Both the position numbers and the translations under genes were made by a program. From positions 18,397-82,396 of the IMG/VR virus record IMGVR_UViG_3300037067_008087: a DNA stretch of 64,000 nt; one strand, given 5' to 3'. Of the stretch, positions 2,046-28,800 are shown one piece after another. Within the stretch, counting starts at the first letter, position 1, and every line of letters starts with the position of its first letter. Source of the stretch: a virus (Duplodnaviria > Caudoviricetes). A model generated the notes under the pieces. The model was not told the origin of the DNA, did not search any database, and saw nothing but the letters and a program-made list of their open reading frames with translations.

Positions 2046-2184
2046 GGAAGCCAAAATGAAATATAAGTATGCCCTTAAACATAGAGATGTTTACAAAATC
2101 CAAAGAGACGAAATACTAAACGCAATAATTACATCCCCCACTCCTAATTGGGGGAGCCTGATAATCAAAGTGACATACATATGA
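2017..2184 (+). CDS. Small hypothetical protein (55 aa; not in the ORF track)
   Basis: Hand translation: ATG at 2017 after GAGGAG, MTQQEKNQIKEAK...IIKVTYI*. The TGA overlaps the ATG at 2181 (ATGA coupling). Confidence 0.55.
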   Translation: MTQQEKNQIKEAKMKYKYALKHRDVYKIQRDEILNAIITSPTPNWGSLIIKVTYI

Positions 2185-4610: not shown

Positions 4611-4614
4611 GAAT

Positions 4615-7497: not shown

Positions 7498-10400
7498 TTT
7501 TCCAACAAGAGAGAGGCCTGATAGGTTTAAGAAGAGTCTTGATTCAATCCTTAATAATTGCGAGGGCGATTTTAGGGTGATTGTTAAATTAGATAGAGAT
7601 GACCCTACGATAAGCCGCTATTTAGCTCTAGTGGACGAATACCGTAATTATCCTATTATATGGAATATAGGAGATTCAAAAAATAAGGTTAATGCAATTA
7701 ATAGAGATATATCTAATCTTGAATGGGATGTTGTTTTTTGTTGGGCTGATGATATATTTGCCATATACAAAGGCTTTGATAATATTATACGGGGTTCTTT
7801 TACAGACATAAACTCTTGGCCGTGCTTTTGGGATGGATACAGGAAGGATGATCTTATTACCATGTGCATTGTAAGTAGGGTTAATTACGATAGGTTCGGG
7901 TATGTATATTATCCGGGCTATGAATCCCTGTACTGCGACAACGAAATGACTGAAATAGCGAGGATTATGGGCGGGTTGAATGTTATACGCCATCCGCAAA
8001 TAGTTAAGCATAATCACCCCGCGCTAAATACCAATGTGCGATTCGATGAACTAAACACTAAAAACGACAAAAGTTCTTCCGTTGACAAGAAGTTATTTGA
8101 AGAGCGTAAAAATAACAATTTTTACATAAACAATAACGATGAGTTGTTAGCCTTAAAATACCAGCAGGAGCCATTAGAGTACGAGGGTTTAATATACAAA
8201 TATTTTAACCCGAAAAAGAAATTAACCATTTTCGAGGTAGGAGCCTGCCAATGTGAGGATACCCTGAAATTACAGAAGTTATTCCCTAATTCTGATATTC
8301 ATGCGTTTGAGCCAATACCGGACAATTACAACAAAGGGCGCCAAAAGATAAGCGGCATCACTCTAAATAATATAGCTGTATCAGACCACAAGGGGGAAGA
8401 TGATATGTATGTAAGCTCTGGGGCTCCCTGTGGCAGCGGAGAGTTTTATGGTAACAAAAGCAGTTCTTTATTAGCCCCATATAAACACCTTGAGATATTT
8501 GAGTGGTGTAAGTTCAATAAGAAGGTACGAGTTAAAGTAGATACTATCGCCAACTACATAACCAAGAAAAACATAAAGCACATTAATTTCATCCATATGG
8601 ATGTTCAGGGGGCTGAGTTACAGGTACTAAAAGGATGCGGGGCGTTTATTTCTAATGTGGATATAGTGTTTTTAGAGGTGGCAAGAATAGAAATGTATAA
8701 GGATCAAGCCTTATTGCCGGACATAAACGACTTTTTTATTTCTAATGGCTTTGAATTGATATATCAGAATGTTAGCGATGTTGCAGGTAATCAATTATGG
8801 GCGAGGATTAAATCGGATTTGCTATTTACTTCCATGCCAAAATATTGTATTAATCTTGCAAAGGAAGTTGACCGAAGAGTTGGCGTGGCTGGTGAATTTG
8901 AAAAGTTAGGGCTATCTATAAATTTCTATAACGCCATAGATGGCAAGAAGCTGGAGCCAAGTAGAACCATGACGGCGAATGAGATTGCATGCTCTAGGTC
9001 TCATAGAAACATAATTAAAGAAGCAAAGAGGCAAGGCCTTGAGTATGTATATATATGCGAGGATGACATTAAGTTCTGTGATGATTTCTGGAAAAGAATA
9101 AGGCGCATAGAGTCTTGTGGGTTAGATTATGATATGTTATTTTTAGGAGGGCACTTTAGTGATAAAGAGGCTATGCCCATAGAATCATCCCCTACAATAC
9201 ATGATAATATATATAGGGTATATAGATTAGCAGGGGCATATTCTTATATTGTTAAAAGTACCGCTTATGATAAAATACTTAATGCGCCAGAGAAATTTGC
9301 TATAGATGCTTTATATTGTTATTTTATTCAGAAACAAGTTAAAGCCTATGCGTTCATCCCATTCTTAACAACTTGTGCGCCTTGTTTCTCTAATATAACC
9401 GGGGTATATATGGAGTACCCCCATGTAAAATGGTATTATTCAAAAAAAATAGAAATGATTACTTATACGAAGTTAGGTAAAAACGGCAGGCTTGGGAACC
9501 AGTTGTTTCAAGTAGCCGCAGCTATTGCGATAGCTAAAGATAATAAAACAACGGCTAAATTGCCCGTTAACTGGCAATACCGTAATTATTTCAATGTGCC
9601 AGACAAATATTTTGGAGATACGTCACCGGATTTATTGGTGAATGTATCAAATTATCATTATGACATAAGCAAACTGGAGAAGGTTGACTTTGAAAAATGC
9701 GTTGACCTATTTGGGTATTTCCAATCAGAGAAGTATTTTAAAAATATTAAAAAAGATATCATAAAATGGTTCACGCCCAAGGTGGCTAGGTTAGATGAGT
9801 GGTCTGTTGGTATGCATATACGCAGAGGAGATTTTGTGGGTAATAAGGCTCATATAAACCTAAAGCCAGAATATTATATTAGCGCTATTGATAAGTATTT
9901 TAATGACCCACGCTATAAGTTTTATATATGCACTGATGATCCAGACTATGCAAGATTCCATTTCAAGGGTGATCGGTTTATAATAGCAGATAGAACGGAA
10001 CTTGAGGACTTTGATGTTATGGTATCATGCCAAAATCACATCTTAGCCAATAGCTCATTTAGTTGGTGGGGGGCTTATTTAGCACAAAGCAAGAGGGTTA
10101 TTCGCCCCGCTAAATCTTTTAGGGGTGTGCTTGATCCTCTTAGTGAGAAAGACCTGTGGCAGCCTGAGTGGATAACCCATGAAGATCACCGGATAGACCT
10201 ATCTGATGTTACTTTTATCACTACATTTAAGTACGATCACCCAGATAGGATAGAGAACCTTGATATATTTATGGATCAGCTTGGGGCTTATAAAACTAAC
10301 ATCCTTATAGGGGAGATGGGAGGGCAAATTGTAAAAGAAAAGTATCCTAAAAACTACGTAGACTTAAATTTTATAAAAGTCTTCCATCATACCCGCAGTA

Positions 10401-11758
10401 ATAACATATTGGCAGCATTGGCTAAAACAGAAATAGTTATCAATATAGACTGTGATATTGTTGTCCCCCCCAATCAGATATATGAGGCGGTTAAGATGCT
10501 GAGAAACGGCTATGAGTTCGTTTTCCCGTATGAGGGGATATTTGTGAGGGTGGGGAATGGGTCTAATGACCGGAACCAAGATTATATAAAATTAATTAAA
10601 GAGGCTGGAGACATAGGGATATTAAAGGGAATAGAGTTTTTTGGCATGTCTTCCGACAATATAGAGAGCCATGGTGGTGTGTTTGGATTTAGGAAGGGTG
10701 TTTACTTTAAGTACGGAGGGGATAACGAAAATTATGTTTCCTACGCACCAGAGGACACTGATAGAGCCTATAGATTCAGAACGCTGAGTAAATACGGGAG
10801 GGTAAGCGGTTCCCTTTATCACTTAAATCATTTTTGTGGTGTGGACAGCACTAATATGAATCCATATTTTAACGCATCAGTCAAGGAGTGGGGAAAGGTA
10901 AGGGCTATGAATAAAAAACAGCTCCTTGCTTACATTAAAACATGGGAGTGGGATTATAGTAAAGTAAAAACACTTAAGGATATAGATAAGGGGTCATGCA
11001 TAAAAACAACTAAAAATAACATCACCGATGTTACATTTATCATACCTGTTAAATACGATCATCCAGACAGAAAAGAAAACCTTAATTTATGTATTAGTTT
11101 TTTACGATATTGGTTTGATACTAATATAATAATAGGGGAACAGGGTGGCGATAAGTTCTCTTACGTAAAGGATATCGGGTGTGAATATGTGAAGTTTGAC
11201 AGCATGCATGAATTTCACCGCACACAGATGATAAATAAACTTACATCTATAGCTAAAACACCAATAGTTTTTAATTGGGATGCCGATGTTGTGGCTCCCC
11301 CGAATCAGGTACTGGACGCGGTAAATTATTTAAGAAACGGGGGCGAGTTTGCTTATCCTTACAACGGAACATTTATTAAAATAGATAAGGACAAAGCGTC
11401 ACAGTTTGGTATATCACTGGATATATCAATGCTTTTTTCGGCAGAACACCAAAAAATAGTGTCAGATTCTGATGGTGGGGCTATAGGATATAAAAAGGAC
11501 GCCTTTTTTAGAATAGGGGGAGAAAATGAACATTACATGTCCCATAGCCCTGAAGACAGGGATAGAAAATACAGAATAGAGACCTTGGCTGAATACACAA
11601 GGATACCGGGGCCGTTGTTTCATATAAACCACTATAAAAGCAAAGACTCAATTCATGATAATCAATATAAGGTTATTAATAAAAGCGAATGGAGGAAGGT
11701 GGGACAAATGAGTAAGGCAGAATTAACTAAATATATAAAAACATGGAAATGGATTTAA
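7478..11758 (+). CDS. 1426 aa multidomain glycan-synthesis protein: GT-A + FkbM methyltransferase + GT25 + GT11 + two tandem GT2/GT7-like domains
   Basis: GT-A (WADD, SLYCDNE); FkbM (FEVGA, AFEP, HMDVQGAE); GT25 (YCINL, DRR, ACSRSH, ICEDD); GT11 (GRLGNQLFQ, GYFQSEKYF, HIRRGDF, NSSFSWWGAYL); two repeats of DVTFI..KYDHPDR.ENL...D.D...GG.NE.Y....PED.DR. Confidence 0.85.
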   Translation: MLKILFNFPTRERPDRFKKSLDSILNNCEGDFRVIVKLDRDDPTISRYLALVDEYRNYPIIWNIGDSKNKVNAINRDISNLEWDVVFCWADDIFAIYKGFDNIIRGSFTDINSWPCFWDGYRKDDLITMCIVSRVNYDRFGYVYYPGYESLYCDNEMTEIARIMGGLNVIRHPQIVKHNHPALNTNVRFDELNTKNDKSSSVDKKLFEERKNNNFYINNNDELLALKYQQEPLEYEGLIYKYFNPKKKLTIFEVGACQCEDTLKLQKLFPNSDIHAFEPIPDNYNKGRQKISGITLNNIAVSDHKGEDDMYVSSGAPCGSGEFYGNKSSSLLAPYKHLEIFEWCKFNKKVRVKVDTIANYITKKNIKHINFIHMDVQGAELQVLKGCGAFISNVDIVFLEVARIEMYKDQALLPDINDFFISNGFELIYQNVSDVAGNQLWARIKSDLLFTSMPKYCINLAKEVDRRVGVAGEFEKLGLSINFYNAIDGKKLEPSRTMTANEIACSRSHRNIIKEAKRQGLEYVYICEDDIKFCDDFWKRIRRIESCGLDYDMLFLGGHFSDKEAMPIESSPTIHDNIYRVYRLAGAYSYIVKSTAYDKILNAPEKFAIDALYCYFIQKQVKAYAFIPFLTTCAPCFSNITGVYMEYPHVKWYYSKKIEMITYTKLGKNGRLGNQLFQVAAAIAIAKDNKTTAKLPVNWQYRNYFNVPDKYFGDTSPDLLVNVSNYHYDISKLEKVDFEKCVDLFGYFQSEKYFKNIKKDIIKWFTPKVARLDEWSVGMHIRRGDFVGNKAHINLKPEYYISAIDKYFNDPRYKFYICTDDPDYARFHFKGDRFIIADRTELEDFDVMVSCQNHILANSSFSWWGAYLAQSKRVIRPAKSFRGVLDPLSEKDLWQPEWITHEDHRIDLSDVTFITTFKYDHPDRIENLDIFMDQLGAYKTNILIGEMGGQIVKEKYPKNYVDLNFIKVFHHTRSNNILAALAKTEIVINIDCDIVVPPNQIYEAVKMLRNGYEFVFPYEGIFVRVGNGSNDRNQDYIKLIKEAGDIGILKGIEFFGMSSDNIESHGGVFGFRKGVYFKYGGDNENYVSYAPEDTDRAYRFRTLSKYGRVSGSLYHLNHFCGVDSTNMNPYFNASVKEWGKVRAMNKKQLLAYIKTWEWDYSKVKTLKDIDKGSCIKTTKNNITDVTFIIPVKYDHPDRKENLNLCISFLRYWFDTNIIIGEQGGDKFSYVKDIGCEYVKFDSMHEFHRTQMINKLTSIAKTPIVFNWDADVVAPPNQVLDAVNYLRNGGEFAYPYNGTFIKIDKDKASQFGISLDISMLFSAEHQKIVSDSDGGAIGYKKDAFFRIGGENEHYMSHSPEDRDRKYRIETLAEYTRIPGPLFHINHYKSKDSIHDNQYKVINKSEWRKVGQMSKAELTKYIKTWKWI

Positions 11759-12318
11759 TACGAATATTAGTAGATGTGGATCATGATGTGGACGGTAATT
11801 TGAACGTGTCCCCGATAATAAGCGTCCCAGAACAGCCCTTTGATATTAATAAGTTATATGATTGTTTTAATAAATTAAAAATAACCATACAGGACAATAA
11901 TTTCATAGGGAAATATTGTGTGGTTTTAAAAATGGTTAATGGTAGTTATGAAATGAAGAATGTATTTTATCCGCGATCCATAAATATGGAAAGGATACAT
12001 AATGATGTGGCTATGCATTTTGGTCTTTCACCAGACGACCTATTATCAAAAACTAAAAAAAGAAAGATAGCAAAGCCAAGACAATTTTCAATGGCGCTCA
12101 TGAGTTATTTACTTAATTCACCCACTGTTGTTGTCGGGGGATTCTATGGGTTAGACCATGCGACAGTTATTTTTGCAAGAGACAAGGCAATACCGGCATA
12201 TTATTTATCCAGAGATAAAGAAATAACTGACGCCATATCTTATTTTAATACCGCATACGGGTTGGCTAAGACAATAAACGACCATATAAAGGAAATTTTA
12301 GGAAAGCCTGTAAATTAA
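11743..12318 (+). CDS. Protein with a DnaA domain IV (Bac_DnaA_C)-like HTH
   Basis: IHNDVAMHFGLSPDDLLSKTKKRKIAKPRQFSMAL...GGFYGLDHATVIFA matches the DnaA C-terminal consensus (VA..F......L.S..R...I...RQ..M...DH.TV..A). Confidence 0.75.
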   Translation: MEMDLIRILVDVDHDVDGNLNVSPIISVPEQPFDINKLYDCFNKLKITIQDNNFIGKYCVVLKMVNGSYEMKNVFYPRSINMERIHNDVAMHFGLSPDDLLSKTKKRKIAKPRQFSMALMSYLLNSPTVVVGGFYGLDHATVIFARDKAIPAYYLSRDKEITDAISYFNTAYGLAKTINDHIKEILGKPVN

Positions 12319-13191: not shown

Positions 13192-13280
13192 ATGTAATTT
13201 TTATGTAAAGTTAAAAACTATATTTGAAATTTCCAAATTTTTATTTGTATATTATTTAATAGTTTACTAACTTTGATAGC

Positions 13281-14778: not shown

Positions 14779-15468
14779 TTAATTAGATAATCCTAATATT
14801 GCTAATATTGTTGCAATCCCCCCAAATATTACAGCAACAGTCGCATTCCTATTAACATTCTTCTTAAGAAGTTTAATCTGGTAATCTTTATCTCCTATGA
14901 CTTTATTTTTCTGGTTATCTTGTTTTACATATAACTCTATCTGATTTTCATAAGTGGCATTAAGCAACTCACACTCCTCATAATTCATTAAAATAACATC
15001 CGTATAAGCTTCGTATTGTACTATCTCATCCCGCAACATCCATGATTCGGAATAAATATTAAATAAGCCGTCTAATTGAGGCTCAGAGAAAGGATAGTCT
15101 TTAGGGGTATCGTCTGTACCAACTACAGTAATAAGGCTGTCATATTTAACGCTAGGGGGTATATTAGCATTACTAACCTTAAGCTCCGCTATTTGTTTAT
15201 CTAAAGCTGATATTGATCTCTGATAAGCTTTAATTTCTTTATTGCCATCAATTATCCTTTGCTGTATCTCAATAACATCAGCCTTTAAAAGCTTTAGCGA
15301 ATCAGATAAAACCCTTATAGTATCTTGTCTTAGGGAGATATCCGACTTTAACGCCTTAATTTCTTTTGAATATTTAACTCCACGGTGGCTAGCATAGCCG
15401 GCTACAAACAATAACACAGCTATCATAACCACCGTTAGGATGTTAAATTTAATTTTAGCCTCAGCCAT
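14779..15468 (-). CDS. Membrane-anchored coiled-coil protein, spanin (Rz)-like
   Basis: N-terminal TM (ILTVVMIAVLLFVAGY), a long heptad region and a C-terminal TM (ATVAVIFGGIATILAILGL). Confidence 0.5.
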   Translation of the reverse strand: MAEAKIKFNILTVVMIAVLLFVAGYASHRGVKYSKEIKALKSDISLRQDTIRVLSDSLKLLKADVIEIQQRIIDGNKEIKAYQRSISALDKQIAELKVSNANIPPSVKYDSLITVVGTDDTPKDYPFSEPQLDGLFNIYSESWMLRDEIVQYEAYTDVILMNYEECELLNATYENQIELYVKQDNQKNKVIGDKDYQIKLLKKNVNRNATVAVIFGGIATILAILGLSN

Positions 15469-15470: not shown

Positions 15471-15812
15471 TTATTCTTTTTTAAGTGCAGCTTTTACTCT
15501 CAACCCGAAATCTGCTGCCTCTTTTAAGAGGTCAAGGGCGTCTTCAATAAGGGACTCAAGTTCATCATCAATAATATCAAACTCTACTTTTATGTGTTCC
15601 TTAAGTTCATCCATTTCAAACATGTCCAAATCATCTAATTCCTCCTTGATCTCAGCCGCATTTTTTATAAGGGTGGGGATTTCAATGAGGTTAGGGAGAA
15701 GAGCTGTGGTATCTGGCAGCCACTGCCATCCGTCTTGGGTAATGTTATCCACCTTATTAAACACATGAATTACAAAACCCACTGCTTGTTTTAGTTTATC
15801 TATATCAGCCAT
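15471..15812 (-). CDS. Hypothetical acidic protein (113 aa)
   Basis: ORF track; TAACTTTG box at 15838..15845 on the minus strand upstream. Confidence 0.6.
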   Translation of the reverse strand: MADIDKLKQAVGFVIHVFNKVDNITQDGWQWLPDTTALLPNLIEIPTLIKNAAEIKEELDDLDMFEMDELKEHIKVEFDIIDDELESLIEDALDLLKEAADFGLRVKAALKKE

Positions 15813-15906: not shown

Positions 15907-18900
15907 TTATTTATACTGATTTACTAAGTCATATAACTGTTTATATGTTACCACCCTTATTTCATCCCCGGCAACCTGTTTAGTTCTAATATAGTCCAAT
16001 ATGTTTTCAAGTATTGTGTAATATTCATATTCCTCCAAATCCCACGTTCCCGGATGGCCATATATACCGAGTGTCGTCCTCTTGGTTGTTATAATTGCAT
16101 CTATATGACCTTCAATAGTTGTTTGATTAGGAATATCAAATCCTTGTGCATAAAACAAATCCCACCTATTAATAGGTATTTTTAGCCTGTTGTTTGTAAC
16201 TAATGTTGCACTTACTGAACGTCCAATATTAAAATAATCTAATACCGCAGAAAAAGTTACATCATCAGCAGCTCCTCCGGGATATGCTTTAGATACAATC
16301 CTGTAATCAATAGCTGTATCGTAATAATTTACTGCCTTTTCATAATAGGTAGCTAATTGTTCAGTAGTATAATTTGCTGATGTTTCATGAAATTCTATTC
16401 TTTCTGGCGGATATTCTCCATTTATTGATAGAGTATGTAATCCTATTTCGTTATCGTTTTTAATTAATGATTTGATCTGTGTGTTTGTAAGATAATGACC
16501 GTAATTAATAAAAAATGTTTGCGGCACACTATGAGGCACAAATACAGTGTCTAATAACGGAATTTCCGTTGGCGTTGTATGATCCCAACTAAATACCACA
16601 AGCGGAAAATCAACATTTTGAATTAACACATAATCGGTATTGTATTGAGCATGATCGCTGTCGCTTACATATACATCATCTTTGAAAATTATTAAATCCT
16701 TGATATATCCTGTCGTTCTATAATTATAGCCTCCATCATAATAATTGGAATCCATCTTATTATAGTATAGATGTGGCCTCCAATTATCAAAATCCGTGAA
16801 TTTTAACGGATCACCAACGAAAATCGTATCTAAAACCTCTCTGACAGAATTTGCTTCACTTAGTGATTCATCGCCTGTTGCAGTGAATATTTGATTTTCC
16901 GTATATTCGCCAAAATATCCTTCCGTTGTGTTTTCGATAAAATAATTTTTATCAGCCACACAATATCCGCTTAATAATAAAGTACTTAATTTAGGCTTTT
17001 CAAGGGTGAAAGGGAAGTCAATATCACAAGCATATCTTAACCATGTTGATCCATCCTGAACATTCCTTAATGGCTTGCCTAAAACATCGTTAGTCCCCGC
17101 CAATAATCCCGGTATTATATAATATTCCTCTACCAATACCGAATTAATCTCAAATGATGATCTTGCACTCCCATTAAAATATAAATATAACGTGGTTTCT
17201 CCGGCGGTGAAATTTGCAACATGGCTTCTGTTTACCAAATCCCACGGAGCTACTGTAATTAATCCACCTCCTGCATTATATCCTGCATATAGAGCAGTAC
17301 CTATAATTGTTAATCTTGTATATATTCCTGACGTGATCGTATTGTTTCTTTGCAAATACGGGCGTGTCGTTGCGGATGCTGTTGGTTGTTTAGTTACCTC
17401 TGCCGTTAAGTTATTATTTGAAAAGGATAGAGTACCAGTGCCACTCGTCCCCCAAACTGCCGACCATCCACTTGTAGATGTTGAAAAATCTGATTGGTAT
17501 TTAACTTTTGTATCATTATAACCATATTGAGCCAGATAGAAATAATTATTCTGAGTTGCAACATTCGCCTCTGCCAAACCACTACACAAAGCATGATGAC
17601 TATTACCAGACACGTCATAAGAAGTCGTTGGTATATTAGTTTCAATTATTGGCTCACAGAATGGAATTATTGCCCATATAACATCTTCCCTCCAAATACT
17701 AATACCATATACAGTATCCCCTTCTGCTATCCTTAATGTCCCGTCAACCGGAATAGTCGGCAAATCACTGCCATCAACAACAGATATAGAATCAGTAGTT
17801 AAAACTCCTGTAATTGTATAATCTAAATTACCAGTTATTGATGTTCTTGCTGAAGCGTTCTTTAAAGCCGCATTATTCTCGTAAAATGTGGCGTCTATCC
17901 ATTCATTTGTTGTAAAATTAAAAGTATCTGCAACAAAAACATATATATTAACAGCAACCGTAATAATATTTGAACTCGCACTCACTCCCGCTGAATTTAC
18001 CGCCCTCACCCTGTAATAGTAAGTTGTGTTCTCGGTTAGTCCGGTAACTGATTGAGAAGTCCCGCTTACCGTCAGATTGTTATACCCAGTTACAAAGGTT
18101 GCAAAGTTACTTGCCGTTGATACGTCCAGCCTGTAACTCGATGCCCCCGATACTGCAGTCCAATTAGCAGTAAAACTTGTGTCGGTTACGGAGGTGGCTG
18201 CCGTTGCTACGGGGGCAGACATATACACCATAAACGAATTACCACCCTTCATAAACTTACCCTCTGACTTCATAAACTGTCCACCGCTACCCATGAATCC
18301 ACCAGTAGGTGTTTCCGGTGCTGCTGCGACTGTTACCGTTACCGTCCACTCCTGAGTTGATTCGTCCAGTGCTGTGACTGTATAAACAACCAGAGAAGTA
18401 AAGTCTGTTGCTGTTCCGCTTGTAGGTGAAATTGTCGCTCCTTCACTTACTGTTATTGTAGGCTGTAAAGCTGTTACTGATGTGCCGTATTCGACTTCTA
18501 TACTTACAGTATGAGCAGTTGAGTTTATTGTGGCTGATCCGGTTTGGGCTGAGAGGGTGAAGGTTAGGATGTTAGTGGCGGTGCTGTCGGCTGAGCCGTA
18601 TTCGGAATAACCGAGGTCAGGGGCAAGCCCGTTGTAAGGCAATCCCACGTCAACACCAGCGTCTATTAAAACAGAACCTTCTTTTAACGTTAGGAACGTT
18701 ATGTCTGGAAGTGAACCATCCGCTTTTCTGGAGGCTGTTAGTTCCGCAAACATAGAAGCTGAATCTAATATATTAAAGTTATCATTCAGCCCCGAATATG
18801 CCCAACTAAGCGTATCATTGTATTCCCAATAAGGTATTTCACCGTTCGTAAATAACCATGTGTTATGATCTCCTCTCGCATAGCTGGGTGGGCCATCACA

Positions 18901-19953
18901 CGCTGATAAATACAGTTCCCAATACCAAAGCCCCCATGAATTATAAACTACATTATTTTGATACAACACTTCGGCATCATGTATATCACAGTCAAAACCA
19001 GTCCCCGGATCAGTCGTAAAACCTTGTTTGCACTTGTAAGCAATGTTGTTATAGTAGTGCATTATTGGCCCATACGGGTAATTTAGATTTTGTTCTACAA
19101 AACCAGACGCTTTATTAAATGCCGCAATATTATTATATGCTTTTCTCGTTTCTAATGATTGTTTATATCCATGTGAATATTTAAAACCAACTCCGGCACC
19201 GTATTCAAGTAGCCCATTACTAAAAGCCCAATTATTATATACATGAGATTGACAAGCCGGGCTAACTTCAAATCCATCATCTGAATTATTCCATGATCTA
19301 CACCCGGAAACTATAAATAAATTAGTAGAATCAGGCTCTGCCGTCCCAGAACCAAAAGTAAATCCATCAGCCCTATTGCCGGGCTCGGGATCATTTTCAC
19401 TTATATTATTATAGCTATCGCAGTTTGTAACATACAAAGTGTCGAAACCTATTATCCATGTCCCATACCCCTCAATATCATGTGATACCATCTGGTCAAA
19501 CCAAATAACCCCTACCTGATATAATGATATACCTGAAATCCATTGACCCAACACAATCTGTTCGCAATTCCGAACTGTTAATCCCCTGAATTTAATATAG
19601 GTAACGTTTTTGACATCTAATGCAACCTTAGTTTCTTCTGAAGTATAATTACTACAATCTAATATTGGGGTTTCATTCGGATAATTAAAAAAACAGATAG
19701 GATCAGTGTACGTGCCGTTATTACCATGACTTGCCGAAGGGTTTAATATAGGTTCTGACGTAGGTTGCCAAATCCCATTACGGAAATATACAGTGTCCCC
19801 CGCTTCGGCTGTGTCAAATCCTTTCTGCCATGTTGCAAAAGGCTGTGCTATCGTTCCGGGATTACTATCACTTCCCCCTGAAGGAGCAACATAATAAGTG
19901 GCTGCATTTAACACACTATTACTAAACAATAGTATAATTATTATTTTTTTCAT
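15907..19953 (-). CDS. Signal-peptide-bearing multidomain depolymerase: PL9-like beta-helix + Ig-like + FN3 + NodB/CE4-like deacetylase
   Basis: Real start MKKIIIILLFSNSVLNA-ATYYV at 19953 (ATGA overlap). Beta-helix motifs GDTVYFRNG, NRADGF, NSDDGF, GVGFK; FN3 (FTANWTAVSGASSY...YYYRVRAVN); C-terminal EIGLHT, AYPGG, YGHP. Confidence 0.75.
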   Translation of the reverse strand: MKKIIIILLFSNSVLNAATYYVAPSGGSDSNPGTIAQPFATWQKGFDTAEAGDTVYFRNGIWQPTSEPILNPSASHGNNGTYTDPICFFNYPNETPILDCSNYTSEETKVALDVKNVTYIKFRGLTVRNCEQIVLGQWISGISLYQVGVIWFDQMVSHDIEGYGTWIIGFDTLYVTNCDSYNNISENDPEPGNRADGFTFGSGTAEPDSTNLFIVSGCRSWNNSDDGFEVSPACQSHVYNNWAFSNGLLEYGAGVGFKYSHGYKQSLETRKAYNNIAAFNKASGFVEQNLNYPYGPIMHYYNNIAYKCKQGFTTDPGTGFDCDIHDAEVLYQNNVVYNSWGLWYWELYLSACDGPPSYARGDHNTWLFTNGEIPYWEYNDTLSWAYSGLNDNFNILDSASMFAELTASRKADGSLPDITFLTLKEGSVLIDAGVDVGLPYNGLAPDLGYSEYGSADSTATNILTFTLSAQTGSATINSTAHTVSIEVEYGTSVTALQPTITVSEGATISPTSGTATDFTSLVVYTVTALDESTQEWTVTVTVAAAPETPTGGFMGSGGQFMKSEGKFMKGGNSFMVYMSAPVATAATSVTDTSFTANWTAVSGASSYRLDVSTASNFATFVTGYNNLTVSGTSQSVTGLTENTTYYYRVRAVNSAGVSASSNIITVAVNIYVFVADTFNFTTNEWIDATFYENNAALKNASARTSITGNLDYTITGVLTTDSISVVDGSDLPTIPVDGTLRIAEGDTVYGISIWREDVIWAIIPFCEPIIETNIPTTSYDVSGNSHHALCSGLAEANVATQNNYFYLAQYGYNDTKVKYQSDFSTSTSGWSAVWGTSGTGTLSFSNNNLTAEVTKQPTASATTRPYLQRNNTITSGIYTRLTIIGTALYAGYNAGGGLITVAPWDLVNRSHVANFTAGETTLYLYFNGSARSSFEINSVLVEEYYIIPGLLAGTNDVLGKPLRNVQDGSTWLRYACDIDFPFTLEKPKLSTLLLSGYCVADKNYFIENTTEGYFGEYTENQIFTATGDESLSEANSVREVLDTIFVGDPLKFTDFDNWRPHLYYNKMDSNYYDGGYNYRTTGYIKDLIIFKDDVYVSDSDHAQYNTDYVLIQNVDFPLVVFSWDHTTPTEIPLLDTVFVPHSVPQTFFINYGHYLTNTQIKSLIKNDNEIGLHTLSINGEYPPERIEFHETSANYTTEQLATYYEKAVNYYDTAIDYRIVSKAYPGGAADDVTFSAVLDYFNIGRSVSATLVTNNRLKIPINRWDLFYAQGFDIPNQTTIEGHIDAIITTKRTTLGIYGHPGTWDLEEYEYYTILENILDYIRTKQVAGDEIRVVTYKQLYDLVNQYK

Positions 19954-20717
19954 AGATACTTTTCTTCTAACCAATCATATATTGTAGATTGTGTAGTCCC
20001 GTCATCAACAACACTTCTGATAATAACTGCTTTTACCTCTATATTTGAATTATACGAGCCACCGCCATTACTCCCAAGATAAAAACCAGCCATATCATTA
20101 CTCCCAGCATTTCCCGTTACGGCGGTATTTTTATTAATCTGCAAAGAGGAGCTTTCGCCATTTAAAATTACACGAACAATGCCGTATGTATCTAAAGCTA
20201 AATCACCATCATCTTGCAATACAGTCCCAGCATATAATCTTAAATATCCTGAATTATCAGTTGATCCTTGTTGTAAAGAACCGTATTCGCTGGCATTATT
20301 ACCATCAAACACAAAATCCCACCGAGACCAAGTAACTTGTTTAAAGACAATATAAATGGTTATTGGTTGATTTAAAGTATATACCCCACCAAGAAAAGCG
20401 CCTTCTCCATTAAACAATATTCCATTTGCGTTTAAAACAGGACGTTCAACCCAAACTACAGGTACAAGGTCTAAGTCGTTACCAGATTCAAAATAGTCTC
20501 TCCATTCTTCAACATAAGTAGGATGGTCAACGGTCATGGTAAACGTACTTGATTCATCGTACAAATACATCGCTACCGTATTATTATCAAGTTCCTCTGG
20601 ATACTCCCCTCCTTCTTCCCCAGCACTCTGCACCCCCCTATAAAACGGATACCTCCCTATCTGCCCGTTAACTGAAACAAGCAGAAATAATAAGGGTATT
20701 ATTATTAACTTTTTCAT
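19950..20717 (-). CDS. Signal-peptide-bearing concanavalin A/LamG-like lectin-domain protein
   Basis: MKKLIIIPLLFLLVSVNG-Q; beta-sandwich pattern (P.L...G..F.G, TIYIVFK, SSLQIN, IKAVII-like strand, YDWL..KY). Confidence 0.6.
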   Translation of the reverse strand: MKKLIIIPLLFLLVSVNGQIGRYPFYRGVQSAGEEGGEYPEELDNNTVAMYLYDESSTFTMTVDHPTYVEEWRDYFESGNDLDLVPVVWVERPVLNANGILFNGEGAFLGGVYTLNQPITIYIVFKQVTWSRWDFVFDGNNASEYGSLQQGSTDNSGYLRLYAGTVLQDDGDLALDTYGIVRVILNGESSSLQINKNTAVTGNAGSNDMAGFYLGSNGGGSYNSNIEVKAVIIRSVVDDGTTQSTIYDWLEEKYL

Positions 20718-20720
20718 GGC

Positions 20721-22007
20721 TTAGTAAGTTGACGTTTTGTAGCCTGAAAGTTGCAAGATTAACAATGACGGTTTATTCCCGGCACTTGTGGCACTTATCG
20801 TACACCATACAAACACCCCCGGCGGGATAACTGCATTTGCAAATGAAGTATCTACATCTCCGGTAGTCGTGCTTGTTATTGTCAATGCTTCTGTGTTTAA
20901 GTTAGTCGCTGAACCTGATTTAAAGGTTGCGTGCCAGCTTACCTGTACCCCCACTGTTTCAGTCCCGCTACCTTCTGCCAATACCCCTCGTAAAGACGTT
21001 ACGTGTATCGTATCGCTTCCCGCATTGAAGAATGAACCCGCTATTGCATTATCATTAAAAGCTGCTGTGTCTGCCGCCAAGCCACCTCCCAGACCGAAAG
21101 TGAATATCGGTATTGTGTCGGCTAACATAACAACATCCTCCGTTGCTGGCTTTCCTGCAAGTCCGGTTGTAAAATCATAGCCCGTCACATAACTCCCTGC
21201 TGCTGTGCCGGAACTGTCTGCTAAAGCCACACCGTCAACGGCATTGTTAAGTAAAGCTGCATTAGAATCGGCAATCATACCTGCTGCCTGTGCTATAACA
21301 AAAGCCGTAGATGCTGCTTGAGTTGTGTTCGTCCCTGTTACTGCTGTCGGAACAGTAGGAGTGCCTGTTAATGCCGGGCTTGAAGATAATACAGTCGAAC
21401 CAGTACCAGTTGACGTGGTTACTCCCGTTCCCCCATTTGCCACTGCTAAAGTTCCCCCCTGTGTTATAGTACCAGATGTCGTTATTGGCCCTCCCGAAGT
21501 CGTTAATCCTGTTGTACCTCCTGAGACGGCTACACTGGTAACAGAACCAGTCCCTCCCCCTATCTCAATGGCATTTATCCTTGCATCCAAAGAAAGAGTG
21601 TCATCACCAGTAAGAAACCCAGTTAAAGCAGATAACTTAGCATAATTAAGCAGGCTATCTGCAATTTCACTCTGTACATCCCCAATAGTTATAAATTCAC
21701 TTATGGCAGAACTCTTTACATAGTTAAGTAAACTATCCGCTATCTCCCCCTGAGCATCACTAAGGGTTATTAAATCAATAATATCATCATGTGTAGCTAT
21801 TTTTGTAAGGGTATCTCCCCATTCGACATAGCCAGTTAGGTCAAGTTCCCCAGCCACAATATCATTTGCTACACTATCTACATAGTGTATTGTTGCAATC
21901 TTGTTTATAGTGTCTACGGTTGCTGTGGCATCAATCTTTTTCGCTTGCCCAAATGCCGATAAGCTTGTTATTACTAAAAGCGATATGATTGCAATTTTTG
22001 TTTTCAT
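20721..22007 (-). CDS. Tail-fibre-like protein with an N-terminal signal peptide
   Basis: MKTKIAIISLLVITSLSAFG-Q; contains GTLAVANGGTG and SPALTGTPTVPTAVTGTNTTQAASTAFV, a typical phage tail-fibre repeat motif. Confidence 0.75.
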   Translation of the reverse strand: MKTKIAIISLLVITSLSAFGQAKKIDATATVDTINKIATIHYVDSVANDIVAGELDLTGYVEWGDTLTKIATHDDIIDLITLSDAQGEIADSLLNYVKSSAISEFITIGDVQSEIADSLLNYAKLSALTGFLTGDDTLSLDARINAIEIGGGTGSVTSVAVSGGTTGLTTSGGPITTSGTITQGGTLAVANGGTGVTTSTGTGSTVLSSSPALTGTPTVPTAVTGTNTTQAASTAFVIAQAAGMIADSNAALLNNAVDGVALADSSGTAAGSYVTGYDFTTGLAGKPATEDVVMLADTIPIFTFGLGGGLAADTAAFNDNAIAGSFFNAGSDTIHVTSLRGVLAEGSGTETVGVQVSWHATFKSGSATNLNTEALTITSTTTGDVDTSFANAVIPPGVFVWCTISATSAGNKPSLLILQLSGYKTSTY

Positions 22008-22023
22008 GTTTTTATGTGTTGTT

Positions 22024-22380
22024 TTAATTCTTCAACCATTGTATGAACATTATAATATATGGTATAATGGTTATGCCCAATCCTATTATCCATTTGGTGT
22101 CCCTACTAGACTCTTTCTTTTTTGCATAAGCCCTTTCCTTTTCTGTCGTTGTAACTTCTATTTCTTTCTTGAAATCTGAAATGGATGATATCTTTTCTGA
22201 CAGGGCGCTCATTGTATGGCATAGCTCTTCAGACCTATCTTCGTTTATCTTCAGCCGCACATTTAATTCAGTAACAGCAGAAATAACTCCCTTTTGGCCA
22301 TTACCCTCCAGCACTTTTTTATGCCTGTCGAGGGTTTCCTTCATTGCCCCTATTTCTTGTTCAAACTTGCAAACTTCCAT
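22024..22380 (-). CDS. Putative holin-like protein (coiled coil plus C-terminal TM)
   Basis: C-terminal WIIGLGITIIPYIIMFIQW preceded by a charged helical region. Confidence 0.45.
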   Translation of the reverse strand: MEVCKFEQEIGAMKETLDRHKKVLEGNGQKGVISAVTELNVRLKINEDRSEELCHTMSALSEKISSISDFKKEIEVTTTEKERAYAKKKESSRDTKWIIGLGITIIPYIIMFIQWLKN

Positions 22381-22812
22381 TTACCACCATATTTCAAGGT
22401 TACCATCTGTTACGCTATTCCACACTATTGTTATAGCTAGAATATCCCCTCGCCACTGTATGTCTGTTAACACTATCGCATTAGTGGTATATGCCACTGT
22501 AGCATAGTTAGCGGTATATGTTAATGTTGCATCCGCAGTATTTAAAGTGTATGGATTCCCGGATACATCAATCTTATAATTAGCATGATGATCATCCCTG
22601 CCATACCCGATAGTGGCGACAGCATCATTAGCATTAAAACTAGTGAAGTCCATTATCACAAGGCTCACATCTTGCTTGCTACCCATGTTTATAAAAAATG
22701 TGGTAGTATCTTGTGAATAATAATCTGCGGCATCATAAGTCCTTCTTAGGCGTTGGGCACTGATATCTACCGCAAGTAGCGACAACAGTAGGAAAAATAT
22801 TGTTTTTTTCAT
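22381..22812 (-). CDS. Small secreted beta-rich protein
   Basis: MKKTIFFLLLSLLAVDISA-Q signal peptide; TAACTTTG box at 22830..22837. Confidence 0.65.
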   Translation of the reverse strand: MKKTIFFLLLSLLAVDISAQRLRRTYDAADYYSQDTTTFFINMGSKQDVSLVIMDFTSFNANDAVATIGYGRDDHHANYKIDVSGNPYTLNTADATLTYTANYATVAYTTNAIVLTDIQWRGDILAITIVWNSVTDGNLEIWW

Positions 22813-22855: not shown

Positions 22856-25800
22856 TTATTCTACACGATCCCCTAGGATGATCTGCCCCTTATCATTAAG
22901 CTTTACTTTTCTATTGGAAAATATAGCCTCTCTGATATCCGCGTCAAACCTTGCGTTTTTAAGCGCCGCGCTCACATCCGCTGGCTTATTGCCCAGCCTT
23001 ATTGCCTCATAATAATCTTCACGTATTGAATTTATGACATTATTCAAAGACTCTTCTGCCTCGAATTTTGCGTTAGCTAACTGATCCTTTTCCATGTTAT
23101 TGGGGGCTATATATCTATTATACCCCCTTAATACTTCAGAATAAATATCACGGGCACTCTCTATTCTTTTTTTATAATTCGGGAATATATAACTCTGCAT
23201 CGACCTCACTGGGTCAATTTTACGGGACTGGGCTCCCTTACCCATAGCCAATAGTGCGTGGCCCCAATCACCCCCTTCTTTTCTTGTTTCATTAACTTTC
23301 ATAAGGTCAGTGATTGTGGCAGGGAGATACAGATTTTCAGCTAAATACCAAGTTATATCCTTAAATTTATTAGACCAAGTATCTTCTTCGTTATAAATAG
23401 CGTAGCCATTATCATTACTATTCTTAATTAAATCAACATAAGCCTTAAATGTCATCTCATATCCCACAAACTTCCCAACAAATTCTTTAGCGGCATTTAT
23501 CAGGTCTTCTGTCTGAAGAGTGCCAAGGGCAGCTTTTCGGCCTACCATTAATAGCGGTGTGGTTATAGAGCCATAATAATCCATGTAAGAATTATTTACA
23601 TAGGTAGCGGTTCCATTTCCATGATCCTCGGTGATTGTTATTATATCATTCTTCCAGTAATCAGGGAGATATCGTTTCCACCCCTCTACATCTTCCGCGC
23701 TTTGCCCGTTTTTTCTATTCCTGTATGCAGATACAGCACTCAATGCAACAATAGACGCTAAATGACCAGACAGCCTCTGCATGCCTATATTTCTAGTATA
23801 TGGGTCTTTTATTTCTTTCCACCCTAATTCTGTCCCCTTAAGAAAATTAACCATTGTAGAATATGGGAACGATATAAACGTTTGGCTCCATGGTGTTTTC
23901 CTTGCTAACTGTATAATTCTTGGCAGTTCTGAATAATAAGTAGATGTATCATGTAGAATATCAGACGCTTTTGTTTTTGCCATTTCTATAGCATCCACAT
24001 CATTCATCCCCATCTTCTTATATACATCCCCGTATCTTAGATATTCAGACACATATCTATAAACTTTCCATACATCATCGGCCCAAGCGTAGGTTTTTAA
24101 TGCTGGCATTACTGTTTTCCTTTTAATTTTTTCACCCAAGGTTTCATCACCAACACGGAAGATGCTGTTTTTACTGGACATATCTTCAATGTTGCGCATT
24201 ATATCGCCTACATTAGTGCTATCACCAATAATACCTCGACTTATCAACTCCCTTGTAAACCCATTTCTATCTTTAAGTTGGTTAGCTATCTCTTTCGCCG
24301 TTGATATTGTATTAAAGTTCCCATTAGCTACCACATTCATTAGGTTAGATTTAAAATTCCTAACAGTTCCTTTCACCGATAAGGCTGTTTTAGAAATCTT
24401 TGCGGCAGACATAGACCCCAGCCATAACTTCATGGCAAGGCTAGACTCACTCTTGGGCTGCAATAAATCATTGAAGTTTTTGGCTATTTCTGGGGTTGTA
24501 TAATATTCTGATAAAGCCTTCGTCCCGGGTTTGCCAGAAAACTGGTAATTAAGTTTAATTTGTGCAATATGATTTTTACTAGCACTCTGGTGTTCGGATA
24601 TTAAACCTTGAGCTAATAAATCATCTTTTATCGCCTCATACATCTTACCCTTAGCAAGTAGTTCTGTCTGCCTGAATAGCGTTGTGGCTATATTATAGAA
24701 TGGGTCTGTATTTTCACCAAGTAGTTCTCTAACTTCTGGATTATCGGTCAAAAACTCAGACCTTCTTTTTAATGACCTAACATCAGCGTCAAGCATGCGA
24801 GGGCCAGATCGTAAGACAAAATCAGCAATATCCCCAACCTCAACCATCTGTTTCATCATACCCGTTGCTATATCTGCATGCTCAGCTTGCTCTTTGATCC
24901 TTTTATTATATACTTCTTCCGGTATACCAAAATTCCCCTTGTTGGCCTTCTCTGCTGAAACAACAAGGTCTATAAAGTCGCTGGCGGTAATTCTGCCATC
25001 ATTTACAGCGTCTAATAATCTACCGTCTTTATAGGCCTCTACAATAGCATCCTGCTTATTTTTCTTCATCCATTCTTCCTTTGGATTTTTAAGCAAATCT
25101 GATGATTGATTAAATATACTCTTATAAGGATTATATTCCATAAATATCGGCAGGGCCGCATCCTTAACTGCCGCCGGAATATTCTCCCAAGTATATCTCC
25201 TATCTGTATGAACCTTATATGTTCTTGTCATATAGAAACCCTGTCTTGCGGTAATGGCTTCAGCAAGGGGGGTGTTTATCATCTGTAATTGAGCAATACG
25301 CCTTGAGTGGCTATCCATCAACGCTCTTGCCTGTAATAAGTCCTCTTTAAACGAATCAGATAATAATGTTTCAAACCTATCTATCATTTCCCCAATAACA
25401 CGGGTATCTCCAATATCAGCAAATTGCTTCATTGCGCTATTTATCATTTTCTTATCCTGATCAGAAAGCCTACCCTCTAATTCTTTTGTCATGTTTTTAA
25501 GTAGGTTCACGGTATCGTATTTAACTGCCTCAATAGCGTTTTTTGTGCTCCTTATTATTCTAGCGGAGCTTTTAGGAATCCCCCCATATGATTTCCACCA
25601 ATATTTTAATCCTTCCGATATGTTTTTTTCTTTAAACTTTTCTTTACCAGTCCTAAATGCATTAAATGCATTATCCCAAAAACCAGCACCAGCGGGTTTA
25701 GACCTCTGCTTATCCTCTTCTTCTTTAAACCTATCTTTCATCCACTCCGCAGCCGTCTTATTTCTTCCCTCTGGAGTTTTCTGTGCTTCTTTCCATTGTC

Positions 25801-28800
25801 GGTATTGTTCTCCACTCATACCCGGAGGTAAGGCAGTGCCTCCTTTGGGCGATGGAGGTATAACAGTTTTCTCTGCTGTCTTCTTCTCTACTGCCTCTAC
25901 ATCAATACCAGTAGCCTTCCTTATAAGATAAGCCTTTGCAGCCTTTTCCCCTTCAGCTCCCTTACCAAACGGCTTACCTGCGCTTATTGTCTTAGGGTCG
26001 CTTGGATTGACCGCATACCAAGTACCGCGACTTTCAACAACCCTATAAGTTTTATCTCCGGCTTCAATATAATGTTCAACACCAACTACATCACCCTTAG
26101 CGTTCATACGTGGGCGTGTACTAAGTTTAATATCCCTATCGACTACTTTTCTTTTCTCTTGAACATTTCCACTTGTCTCAGTCTTTTTTGAGCTTGTTGT
26201 TTTGTCAGGTTTGGTTTGCTTAAGTTTTTCCCCGACTCGCTTTTCACTTGGTATCCCTGTTTTGTTTTTGTTATCATTTACTTTAAGTTTAGTAAGGTCA
26301 GTAATACCCCCTTGTTTTATTTTCTCTGTCGGCTTAATTTTATTCTTAGGGGCTTCAGTCTTCACCCCTTGTTTTATCTTGGGTTTTTCAGCCACGCCAA
26401 GATCGGTTAAATCAGTATAGGTTTGTTTAACCTTTTCTACTGGTTTAATTTTGTTCTTAGGTTTTTCTGTCCCCTTATTCTTTTCACGGCTAATATCAGT
26501 TAAATCAGTATAGCCCTTGGCTTTTTTAATCGGCTCAGCTTTAGGTGTTTTTAATTTAGCCGATACAGTATGTGTTCGGGCTCCGCCATAATCCATGGCT
26601 TCATATTTCCATGAGTATTCAGGGTTGGTAGTCTGTAGTTTCCTGCGGGCTTGCTCTGCCGCACCGCGCCCTTCAAAATATTCATCTACTACATACTCAC
26701 CAGCTTTATTCCCCTCGATTAATTCATACTGACGTTCCCCGTCACTAACCTTAGGATTTGTTGATGTTTCCTTTGGTTCTTCCTTAATTGGTTCAGCAGC
26801 CTGTTTGATCTTCTCTTTTGGCTTCTCGATTGCTTTAGGCTTTGGCTCCGCTTTCTTTTCAATAGGTTTAATTTTATTTTTAGGGGGTTCTTTTTTAGTA
26901 ACCTCTTTCTTTTCTGGCATAACTGGCTTAGGTTTTTCTGCCACGGGCTCAGTTTTAGCCTTAACCTCAGCAACCCCATCTCTGACTAAGTCTCTTTTAC
27001 TTAATTCTAGAGAAGAAGATGTATCTTTATATTGAGCAATAACACCCTCATTTGACCTAACTACTAAATCTCCATTAGGATTTACCTCTTGCACAACACC
27101 ACTAAAACCACGTTCTTTATCCTTTACTTTGTCACCAACAGCAAAATCAGCCCGTTCTGTTTTAGGGGTGGGCTCAGCTTTTGGGGGCTCAACCTTAGGG
27201 GTCTCTTCTTTAGGTTTAGCGGCCTCCACTTTGGGAGTTGCTTCTTTGGCAGCTTCCGCCTTAGGAGCCTTTGCTTCCCTTTTTATTGGTCGCGCTACTT
27301 TAGCTTCAGGTTGCACCTCTACTGCGGCACTGACTTCTTCTTTAACTGGCTCTGGTTTCGCTTTAAAATTAGCAGATGGTTTCATCCTATAAGAGCCATC
27401 TTCCATTTTCTCGGCTTCTTCAGACCTAACCAAAGAATCCCACATATTACGAGCCTTAGAACTTATCTTGTCCGGGCGATCAGATTTTATCACATCCCCT
27501 TGCTGCCCAGCCTCTTCATTAAGTGATCTATATACCTGCTTACCAAAGCCCCTGCCCTCTTCATTTACATCTACCCTTTTAACTTCCCATCCTTCGGGTT
27601 TTTCTTCTATGGTTATTTCACCAAACTCTTCGCCGTCTTTTGTTATCTTACGAGTGAACGTATTCTCGCCCGCCTTAAGTATTTTCTTAATGGAGTTAGT
27701 TGATGGGGTTTTCTCTGATACTCCTATAACGGGCTTAGCCGTGACATCACTTCTCTTTTTAAACATATCAGACTTGGCTTGTTCTTGCCATAAATTTTCA
27801 AGATCGCTTATTTCTTTTTCTAAAAACTTTTGCGCTGTCTCTATTTCCTCAATGGTATTTTTTCGGGTCTGTGATAATTTAGAACTTTCAAGCCTCTTGT
27901 ATTCTTCATATAAATTATCACTAGCCTTCCTTATTCTGTCATTAATAACAGGGAGTTCCCCGTCTATATCATTTATAGTCCTGCGTGTTTCTTCGTTTAT
28001 AAATAACTCGGGTTCCTGAAATTCTTTTCTATTGTCTAATATCCTAACATCTACATCATCTTGGATTTTCTTATTGTTCTCTATTATCTTATCTATCTTA
28101 TCAAGCTGTGTTTTTTTAGTGGCGTCTGGAAGATCAGATTCCTGTATAGATTTTCTGTATAGGTCAGGATTAACTATAACGTCTTTAGATATAGCATTGA
28201 TATCTATTATATTGTCTATTAAGGTTTTTGACGAAAGAAGTTCATTCTTCCTTTGTATGTTAGTTTCTTGGGCAGCTTGATCACCTAACTCTATTGATCT
28301 CTCTCTTAGTTTAGATGGCTCAATATCCATTGACTGCACTAAATCAATAGCCTTAGGAGATGCGCTCATGAAGTTTTTGGCGGCTTTATTATAGGCGTTT
28401 CTTATAACCGCCCTCTTTACATCTGTCCCTATTAACCTAGGTACACCGGGTAAGCCAAGTCCGATACCAACACCAAGCGATTCCGCTGCTGTGCCCCAAT
28501 CAACTTCTCCATTTTGGGTATATTGATTATAAACATCATACCCCATAAACCCAATACCATTGGCAAGTGATGCCGCAGAACCAGATAAAACAGCTGATTT
28601 TGTTGCTTGCCCAACTAAATTGCCTAACATGCCAGAACCAACACCCAGTGAATGTAACACACTACCAGCAGTAAACCCTTCTACTGCACCAACTAAACCA
28701 GATTTTAATCTATCTTTAGTGTTGTCTCCGGTTTTAGTGCCGCGATATAAACCCTTCATCCCCTCAAGCGTGGCTAATTTGGGAATATTAACAGCCTTAC

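Follow-up and report, generated by a model that had tools for sequence, protein, structure and literature searches.

Predicted export signals on the fibre, lectin and depolymerase genes of a tailed phage with a probable Bacteroidota host

The cytoplasm is regarded as the place where tailed phages carry out their whole assembly. The proteins described here, which belong to the apparent host-recognition set of one tailed phage, were predicted to be exported, and several lines of earlier work bear on such a prediction. The Q-rule, according to which glutamine (Gln) stands at the first mature position (+1) and is cyclised to pyroglutamate, is specific to the substrates of signal peptidase I (SPI) in Bacteroidetes, and the glutaminyl cyclase faces the periplasm (Bochtler et al. 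2018, PMC5837995). In this phylum, the sequon D-S/T-(AILVMT) is O-glycosylated only in non-cytoplasmic proteins, in which it is enriched across the phylum (PMC12871550, PMC8550257); phages are nowhere mentioned in a 2025 review on O-glycosylation in Bacteroidota. In temperate Porphyromonas phages, five genes that follow the Q-rule and whose function is unknown are read as envelope modifiers (Matrishin et al. 2023, PMC10367356). For the Cellulophaga phages Ingeline and Nekkels, one sentence mentions pectin/alginate lyase domains in large multi-domain proteins with "signaling peptides" (Bartlau et al. 2021, PMC8776804). In a survey of diversity-generating retroelements, the phage target proteins lacked signal peptides. 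Our literature search found no paper on exported tailed-phage fibres and only passing remarks on signal peptides on the fibres of crAss-like, Flavobacterium, Cellulophaga and Bacteroidota phages. The DNA analysed here, called the window, is a stretch of 64,000 nucleotides (bases 18397-82396 of one 82,396-bp contig, IMG/VR record IMGVR_UViG_3300037067_008087) and belongs to a phage genome. Six of its proteins begin with predicted type-I signal peptides; by domain content and models, two of these are fibre-like, two are lectin-like or small beta-sandwiches, and two are large lyases/hydrolases/deacetylases acting on polysaccharide.

A preliminary description of this DNA had reported four neighbouring genes with signal peptides in one part of the window, here called the left block, three of them with Gln at +1. 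This was borne out, as the open reading frames (ORFs) were recovered at the same places with identical N-termini and the n-h-c form of the signals was canonical; the predicted cuts leave Gln at +1 of the 143-, 428- and 255-aa proteins and alanine at +1 of the 1348-aa protein (Table 1). The list was incomplete, in that two more signal-bearing genes lie in the window, in a second block, and one small gene lies upstream of it. Signal calls were made by heuristic scoring of the n-region, the hydrophobic core and the -3/-1 residues. Two lysine or arginine residues occur within the first four residues of all four left-block proteins and of the two second-block proteins, the hydrophobic cores comprise 7-11 residues and the uncharged runs 8-16, and the -3/-1 pairs are I,A, A,G, V,G and L,A in the 143-, 428-, 255- and 1348-aa proteins, respectively. 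By these features, all six proteins are predicted substrates of the Sec/SPI route. No hydrophobic stretch of about 19 residues or more, as expected of an uncleaved anchor or transmembrane (TM) helix, was found at these N-termini, and cores of 7-11 residues are too short for a membrane-spanning anchor. Similarly, the N-termini do not appear to belong to a virion-attachment domain, as the AlphaFold2 (AF2) models place a helix ahead of the rest of the protein: residues 2-13 precede a sandwich that starts with the strand at residue 23 in the 143-aa protein (predicted local distance difference test score 84), and residues 2-19 precede the helix at residue 33 in the 428-aa protein.

Signals for other destinations were also sought. 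There was no cysteine near the cut in the four left-block proteins, as a lipobox would require, and the 143- and 255-aa proteins have no cysteine at all. Only the 486-aa protein has a cysteine at the cut (AMC/Q, the slash marking the cut); with methionine as the -1 residue of that cysteine, this is not a canonical lipobox. A C-terminal domain as used by type IX secretion systems (T9SS; TIGR04183/TIGR04131 type) was not matched, with E values allowed up to 5, by any of the six proteins over their final 124-150 residues, nor by the four left-block proteins when scanned over their whole length.

The signals and the Gln at +1 are conserved. Gln stands at +1 in three of the four left-block proteins and in 5-6 of 7 signal-bearing proteins genome-wide; it makes up 3.3% of residues and occupied the predicted +1 position in 5 of 14 flagged ORFs, the scoring having given it no bonus. 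The family of the 143-aa protein comprised 22 cluster representatives at 23-61% identity, of which 20 have a full signal and two have short or truncated N-termini, and just three alignment columns never vary across its 23 sequences, namely Met1, Gln20 and a glycine. In the family of the 428-aa protein (29 sequences), Gln21 is at least 90% conserved, and about 30 close relatives all have a signal. Of the best 120 matches for the 428-aa protein, nearly all that have its C-terminal domain in common carry a signal and Gln, and the remote relatives sharing only a generic fibre shaft motif have no signal. A related 77-kb contig, L001, carries seven consecutive signal-bearing genes after its cargo gene, including homologs of all six window proteins; the signal sequences differ between the two, and in paired homologs the mature N-termini are conserved from +1. 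Two phage contigs of 92.5 kb and 49.9 kb, whose tail genes are different, show the same succession of signal-bearing genes, namely fibre, lectin and Pel9A-type lyase.

Two families depart from this pattern. The Pel9A-type lyase genes are a consistent exception to the Q-rule, with +1 always A, T or N, and have kept the signal in L001 and in two further sequences, L003 and L005. In these lyases the beta-helix (T/R-Y-Y-V/I) begins immediately after the cut. In the family of the 255-aa protein (alignment A1), most homologs (P0003-P0011, P0013 and others) have no signal, which occurs only in the window's clade and in P0012 and P0017, so that it looks like a clade-specific gain or loss. The signal-less homologs sit in 37-kb phage contigs near terminase genes, a context that was uninformative.

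The sequon D-[ST]-[AILVMT] was counted and compared with the count expected from composition, with 2000 shuffles. In the signal-bearing proteins of the window there are 42 sequons against 20.9 expected, a count reached in 0 of 2000 shuffles, while the other 97 window ORFs have 67 against 57.2. The signal proteins of L001 have 42 against 19.1 expected. For L003 the counts are 26 against 14.9 in signal proteins and 8 against 12.6 in non-signal proteins; for L005 they are 15 against 7.9 and 9 against 9.2. The pool of 26 proteins, which contains homologs and is not a set of independent sequences, has 123 sequons against 62.5 expected (1.97). In this pool aspartate gave the highest ratio of the 20 possible first residues, followed by histidine at 1.43, and D-[ST] with a non-allowed third residue was depleted (0.71). 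The ratio for non-signal structural proteins was 0.79. The sites are unevenly distributed, the 255- and 143-aa proteins having 0 and 1, respectively, and repeats within the 428- and 486-aa proteins raise their counts. A twofold enrichment confined to the signal-bearing proteins is what is expected of substrates of the general O-glycosylation system of Bacteroidota, and glycan attachment is predicted for them.

Whether the signals follow position or function was evaluated by permutation and from gene lists. Four signals in five consecutive genes were reached in 6.9% of permutations with a loose heuristic that flagged 14 of 104 ORFs, TM proteins included, and because of this figure adjacency alone is a weak statistic. 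The association of the signal with function is stronger: in the late block, a signal is present in 4 of 4 proteins with carbohydrate or fibre domains and in 2 of 20 others (p about 0.0014, hypergeometric on gene lists). In the window as a whole, signals occur on all six recognisable fibre, lectin and depolymerase genes and on none of the capsid, portal, terminase, connector-sized and cargo genes. The label "structural-type" that these genes had been given is an inference from gene position, the tail-fibre motif and the tandem mass spectrometry (MS/MS) annotation of proteins in a distant relative.

The 1348-aa protein, counted from an ATG (a possible TTG start seven codons upstream would merely lengthen the n-region), contains a Pel9A-like beta-helix at residues 17-258, DUF5018 at 456-543, Fn3 at 580-666 and a CE4 deacetylase at 1117-1236 (Pfam); its beta-helix is PelN-like (1.2e-33). 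The 428-aa protein has a tail-fibre motif (phrog_2631/7032/454) at residues 202-259, and its AF2 model consists of a helical region at 33-122, a low-confidence G/T-rich shaft and a C-terminal jelly roll at 289-428. It is the only one of the six in which shaft motif, elongated build and distal beta-sandwich are found together. The best folds for its C-terminal domain were phage capsid-decoration, PBSX XepA (Z 9.1) and tail-fibre tip jelly rolls, with Z scores of 8.9-9.5 that lie near background, so the modelled domain is a jelly roll without clear assignment by fold search. About 30 signal-bearing proteins, 253-707 aa long and unrelated to one another in their N-terminal parts, share this jelly roll of about 140 aa (window 20721-21152) at 70-82% identity, and a search of 185,579 bacterial and archaeal species, with one genome for each, gave no cellular copy. 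One relative bearing it also has pectinesterase and beta-helix domains. The 143-aa model gave generic beta-sandwich matches only, with no Foldseek match to the PDB below 1e-3 and weak matches in BFVD. The L005 gene at the position equivalent to the 255-aa gene has a Laminin_G_3 domain (PF13385) and gave no tblastn match to the 255-aa protein. No Pfam family was found in the 486-aa protein, whose C-terminus matches the signal-bearing 467-aa gene of L001, and the 1143-aa protein is 58% identical over residues 2-226 to an L001 gene (4728-9245) inside the single signal-peptide block of that contig.

Table 1. Features of the window and of related sequences; coordinates are those of the window unless another sequence is named, and a slash within a motif marks the predicted cut.
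Feature	Position	Strand	Remarks
143-aa protein	22381..22812	(-)	signal codons 1-19 (22756-22812), predicted cut ISA/Q; mature part small beta-sandwich
118-aa coiled-coil protein	22024..22380	(-)	one C-terminal TM, residues 95-117; phrog_1193 "hemolysin"/XhlA-like, E 1.3e-5
428-aa fibre-like protein	20721..22007	(-)	signal codons 1-20 (21948-22007), predicted cut AFG/Q
255-aa lectin-like protein (concanavalin/LamG type)	19950..20717	(-)	signal codons 1-18 (20664-20717), predicted cut VNG/Q; phrog_21809
1348-aa multi-domain polysaccharide-active protein	15907..19953	(-)	signal codons 1-17 (19903-19953), predicted cut LNA/A
113-aa acidic protein	15471..15812	(-)	no signal; 29% identity to L001 15035-15373; weak adaptor-like match only
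229-aa protein	14779..15468	(-)	N- and C-terminal TM (start about 2-13 and 207-211), coiled coil; weak Rz-like PHROGs
2259-aa virion cargo-type gene	22856..29635	(-)	no signal peptide; upstream border of left block
1143-aa protein	50832..54263	(-)	predicted signal VLG/Q; LamG, GH5 cellulase, PL14-like lyase, CUB
486-aa fibre-like protein	54260..55720	(-)	predicted signal ends AMC/Q; alternative cut A/M
80-aa membrane protein, holin candidate	50583..50825	(-)	1-2 TM; directly after second block
Pel9A-type lyases	window 19903-19953; L001 11164-; L003 13008- and 19555-; L005 11760- and 15003-		
Portal	43834-46263		phrog_6547
Large terminase (TerL)	47555-49915		phrog_6681
1260-aa virion protein			phrog_14478
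Glycosyltransferase/methyltransferase/radical-SAM cluster	2148..12318	(+)	no signal peptides
Amidase_3 endolysin candidate	3894-4610		inside transferase cluster

The placement of the left block directly after the virion cargo gene, also reported in the preliminary description, was confirmed. After the 2259-aa gene follow, on the minus strand, the 143-, 118-, 428-, 255- and 1348-aa genes, and successive genes are, in that order, 43 nt apart, directly abutting, 16 nt apart, 3 nt apart and joined by an ATGA overlap; these genes are packed as one operon. The "holin-like" designation of the one interrupting gene was roughly right, its product being the XhlA-like 118-aa protein, and a 110-aa gene takes the equivalent place in L001 (3132-3464). 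The position of the 113-aa acidic gene beside the block is also conserved. The 229-aa protein with two TM segments is a spanin-like lysis candidate, and the 80-aa membrane protein is 50% identical to the product of L001 9266-9484, which lies inside the block there. Both blocks interleave signal genes with genes of membrane or lysis type (XhlA-like, 80-aa and 229-aa spanin-like). Hydrophobic N-termini were also seen in a run of three small genes (91, 59 and 71 aa) that lies upstream of the window, at window coordinates -10857 to -10198; the signal of the 91-aa protein ends AYG/Q, and two sequons occur in its 91 aa.

Among 50,697 phage records, no nucleotide-level relative of the left-block region was found by megablast, and the 493-aa and 428-aa proteins gave no tblastn match in the phage collection. 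Distant homology (22-39% identity) to Cellulophaga phage phi18:3 (Pachyviridae) was found for TerL, for the portal, for a portion of the 1260-aa protein and for the C-terminal end of the giant gene; over its last 650 aa, the 2259-aa cargo protein shares 24% identity with phi18:3 gp123, which is annotated as structural from MS/MS. TerL also matches other phages of the phi18:3 group and the Flavobacterium "elemo" phages. Membership of the Crassvirales, guessed from the giant gene and the genome size, was rejected on the grounds that TerL, portal and cargo protein are distantly related to Pachyviridae and "elemo" phages; in true Crassvirales (crAss001, phi14:2), the fibres carry no signals. From the Q-rule itself, together with Cellulophaga and Flavobacterium phages as nearest TerL relatives, we infer that the host is probably a member of the Bacteroidota. 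No integrase was found among the phage genes scanned. An IS200/IS605-type transposase (TnpB-like, phrog_506, E 1e-124; 46279-47469, minus strand) lies between portal and terminase, with a 387-aa ORF of near full length antisense to it (46409-47572, plus strand). In a search of 185,579 species genomes, the best relatives of the transposase were in methanogenic archaea (about 50-53% identity), followed by Cyclobacteriaceae and Chitinophagaceae (about 45%); with its closest relatives in methanogenic archaea it was uninformative on the host, and the inference of a host from it was dropped.

Taken together, the conserved form of the signals, the Gln at +1 and the sequon enrichment make export likely and point to a host in the Bacteroidota, and the suggestion in the preliminary description that the proteins are SPI substrates following the Q-rule gains support from the same features. 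Actual export and processing of the signal-bearing proteins is judged highly probable. In the explanation considered best, to which we give an even chance as a whole, the entire host-recognition set would be exported by Sec, matured in the periplasm, released, and probably docked on particles at lysis. Late in infection, the six proteins would cross the inner membrane and be cut by SPI, most would have their Gln converted to pyroglutamate by the host glutaminyl cyclase, and the host's general periplasmic system would O-glycosylate them at the sequon. They would then remain as soluble periplasmic proteins until the envelope is opened by the membrane and lysis proteins encoded beside them; such retention is suggested because no T9SS C-terminal domain and no canonical lipobox were found and the hydrophobic segments are too short for anchors. 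After release, the proteins would most likely dock on particles built in the cytoplasm.

For this last step, the argument comes by analogy from a distant isolate. In phi18:3 (KC821620), gp085, gp086 and gp087 (547, 785 and 559 aa; 7892-13584) each have a signal and Gln at +1, match virion-structural and tail-protein PHROGs, and were labelled "structural protein" by the depositor on the strength of an MS/MS proteomics experiment. After them come gp088 and gp091, small genes whose N-termini are hydrophobic, and a glycosyl hydrolase. In the window phage itself, indirect support comes from the place of the genes in the late operon, from the 428-aa protein being built like a fibre, and from the fact that no other candidate for receptor binding was recognised. 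Given export, incorporation into the virion may equally well occur or not.

Several observations weigh against docking on the particle. To our knowledge, no tailed phage adds exported proteins to its particle, and no mechanism for doing so is known; our literature searches likewise gave none. No docking module common to the six proteins was found. The conserved part of the 428-aa protein is its C-terminus and not its N-terminus (82% identity to L001, 70-80% to about 30 proteins), and the catalytic beta-helix of the 1348-aa protein begins right at the cut, as in an ordinary secreted bacterial enzyme. The recurrence of the fibre, lectin and lyase order in three contigs of differing size and tail genes points to a stand-alone module and away from a tail part made to fit. 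The phi18:3 proteins gp085-087 are not homologs of the signal proteins of the window, are sequon-depleted (3 against 9.7 expected), which is the opposite of the window's clade, and could have been detected by MS/MS through co-purification.

In the main rival explanation, the exported proteins would never enter the particle and would act as free periplasmic depolymerases, deacetylase and lectins that are released at lysis and strip or mask the surface polysaccharide of the host. Their purpose would be escape of the progeny, avoidance of re-adsorption to debris, or a block to superinfection, and export would merely supply pyroglutamate, glycans, calcium and disulfides for extracellular stability. 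All of the sequence evidence for export is shared by this explanation and by docking. It accords with the 1348-aa protein, which resembles a normal secreted PelN-type enzyme without an N-terminal anchor, with the absence of a shared docking module, and with the three-gene order that recurs beside different tail genes. It also agrees with the sentence on signal-bearing lyases of Cellulophaga phages (PMC8776804) and with the reading of Q-rule proteins as envelope modifiers (PMC10367356). However, it would leave the phage without any recognisable receptor-binding protein, and the 428-aa protein has a classical fibre build with a tail-fibre motif. The genes belong to the late structural operon and follow the cargo gene directly, and the signal proteins of phi18:3 are MS/MS-annotated virion components, the sole fibre-sized ones besides the hub. 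Moreover, the capsule would be out of reach before lysis without an outer-membrane secretion signal, of which none was found. This explanation is considered quite possible, though short of probable.

A third explanation holds that the N-termini are not used for export. Assembly would then be cytoplasmic, and the segment would be an assembly or attachment element, or a propeptide cut by a phage protease. Such assembly is the sole known route for tailed-phage fibres, and homologs of the 255-aa protein without any signal exist. For capsid "signal peptides" in Porphyromonas phages, removal by the prohead protease has been suggested (Matrishin et al. 2023, PMC10367356). Yet it would leave unexplained an invariant Gln exactly at +1 of an AXA-type site, a signal sequence that drifts while its n-h-c form is kept, and the enrichment of a sequon whose use is confined to non-cytoplasmic proteins; the AF2 helices ahead of the folded parts also speak against it. 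Cytoplasmic use of these segments is thus very unlikely. Onward transport to the cell surface or to outer-membrane vesicles, through T9SS or another route and with the jelly roll as a new sorting domain, is hardly plausible, for although the arrangement of signal, variable body and conserved C-terminal beta-sandwich of about 140 aa in about 30 proteins recalls T9SS cargo, and the likely hosts (Flavobacteriia-type Bacteroidota) have T9SS, none of the six C-termini matched a T9SS model even at E up to 5, the jelly roll occurs on the 428-aa protein only among the six, its best if near-background folds are phage decoration, XepA and fibre-tip jelly rolls, and its absence from the cellular genomes searched would be odd for a host sorting signal.

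Returning to export followed by docking, a more elaborate version can be proposed tentatively, and we regard it as rather unlikely in full. The lineage may build its receptor-binding apparatus in a separate compartment, with exported, pyroglutamate-capped and glycosylated fibres whose glycan is perhaps remodelled by the phage's own glycosyltransferase cluster of 9.6 kb, and with docking when the inner membrane is breached. The interleaved XhlA-like, holin-like and spanin-like proteins would make this breach, and glycosylated, protease-resistant virion fibres would result. The transferase cluster of the window could remodel a lipid-linked glycan destined for the exported proteins; no flippase or oligosaccharyltransferase was recognised in it. 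The cluster includes a 1426-aa protein with six transferase-type domains.

A host-recognition set with three independent extracytoplasmic marks (signal, Q-rule Gln and sequon) challenges the view that tailed phages assemble wholly in the cytoplasm. If the proteins are on the particle, virion assembly has a step after export or at lysis, and the fibres would be glycosylated by the host, which bears on receptor recognition, on stability in gut or sea water, on structural work and on phage engineering; cytoplasmic expression in E. coli would then yield the wrong product. If they are not on the particle, these phages secrete a whole kit for remodelling polysaccharide, and their true receptor-binding protein must be another one. 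In either case, a signal peptide should be no bar to a fibre or depolymerase call when Bacteroidota phages are annotated, and the Q-rule together with the sequon may serve as a host-phylum marker for uncultured phages.

Compared with known systems, the six proteins agree with Q-rule substrates in the type-I signal, the Gln at +1 and the conservation of this Gln across homologs (PMC5837995). The Q-rule genes of the Porphyromonas phages differ in that they are of unknown function, with no tail part named in the passages concerned (PMC10367356), whereas here late-operon fibre, lectin and depolymerase genes are involved. The likeness to Ingeline and Nekkels is by description only, and the sentence on their lyases does not discuss the Q-rule, sequons or export of tail parts (PMC8776804). 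A further parallel is phi18:3, where, as in the second block of the window, adjacent large genes with signal and Gln lie beside membrane and lysis genes, upstream of the terminase. A difference is that gp086 and gp087 begin with a stretch of 60-115 residues that matches the starts of other tail-fibre and pectate-lyase PHROGs, while the six window proteins share no N-terminal part. The fibres of crAss001 (gp22-26; Bacteroides) and of phi14:2 and phi38:1 (Cellulophaga) have no signal peptide; because phi14:2 and phi38:1 share the host genus of phi18:3 yet lack the signal, it is a trait of the lineage and not a requirement of the host. Conventional tailspikes and fibres have the same kinds of domain (beta-helix lyases, lectins, G-rich shafts) and the same late-operon position, but they carry no signal and are assembled in the cytoplasm. 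Use of the host Sec route late in infection is shared with signal-anchor-release endolysins, spanins, filamentous-phage coat proteins and PBSX XepA/XhlA, and an XhlA-like gene sits inside the left block. Those exported phage proteins, however, either serve lysis or come from non-tailed phages whose assembly takes place at the membrane, and they include no tailed-phage fibre or depolymerase. New for the present lineage are the residue-specific sequon test, the invariant Gln at +1 and the connection with an isolate whose virion proteins are annotated from MS/MS.

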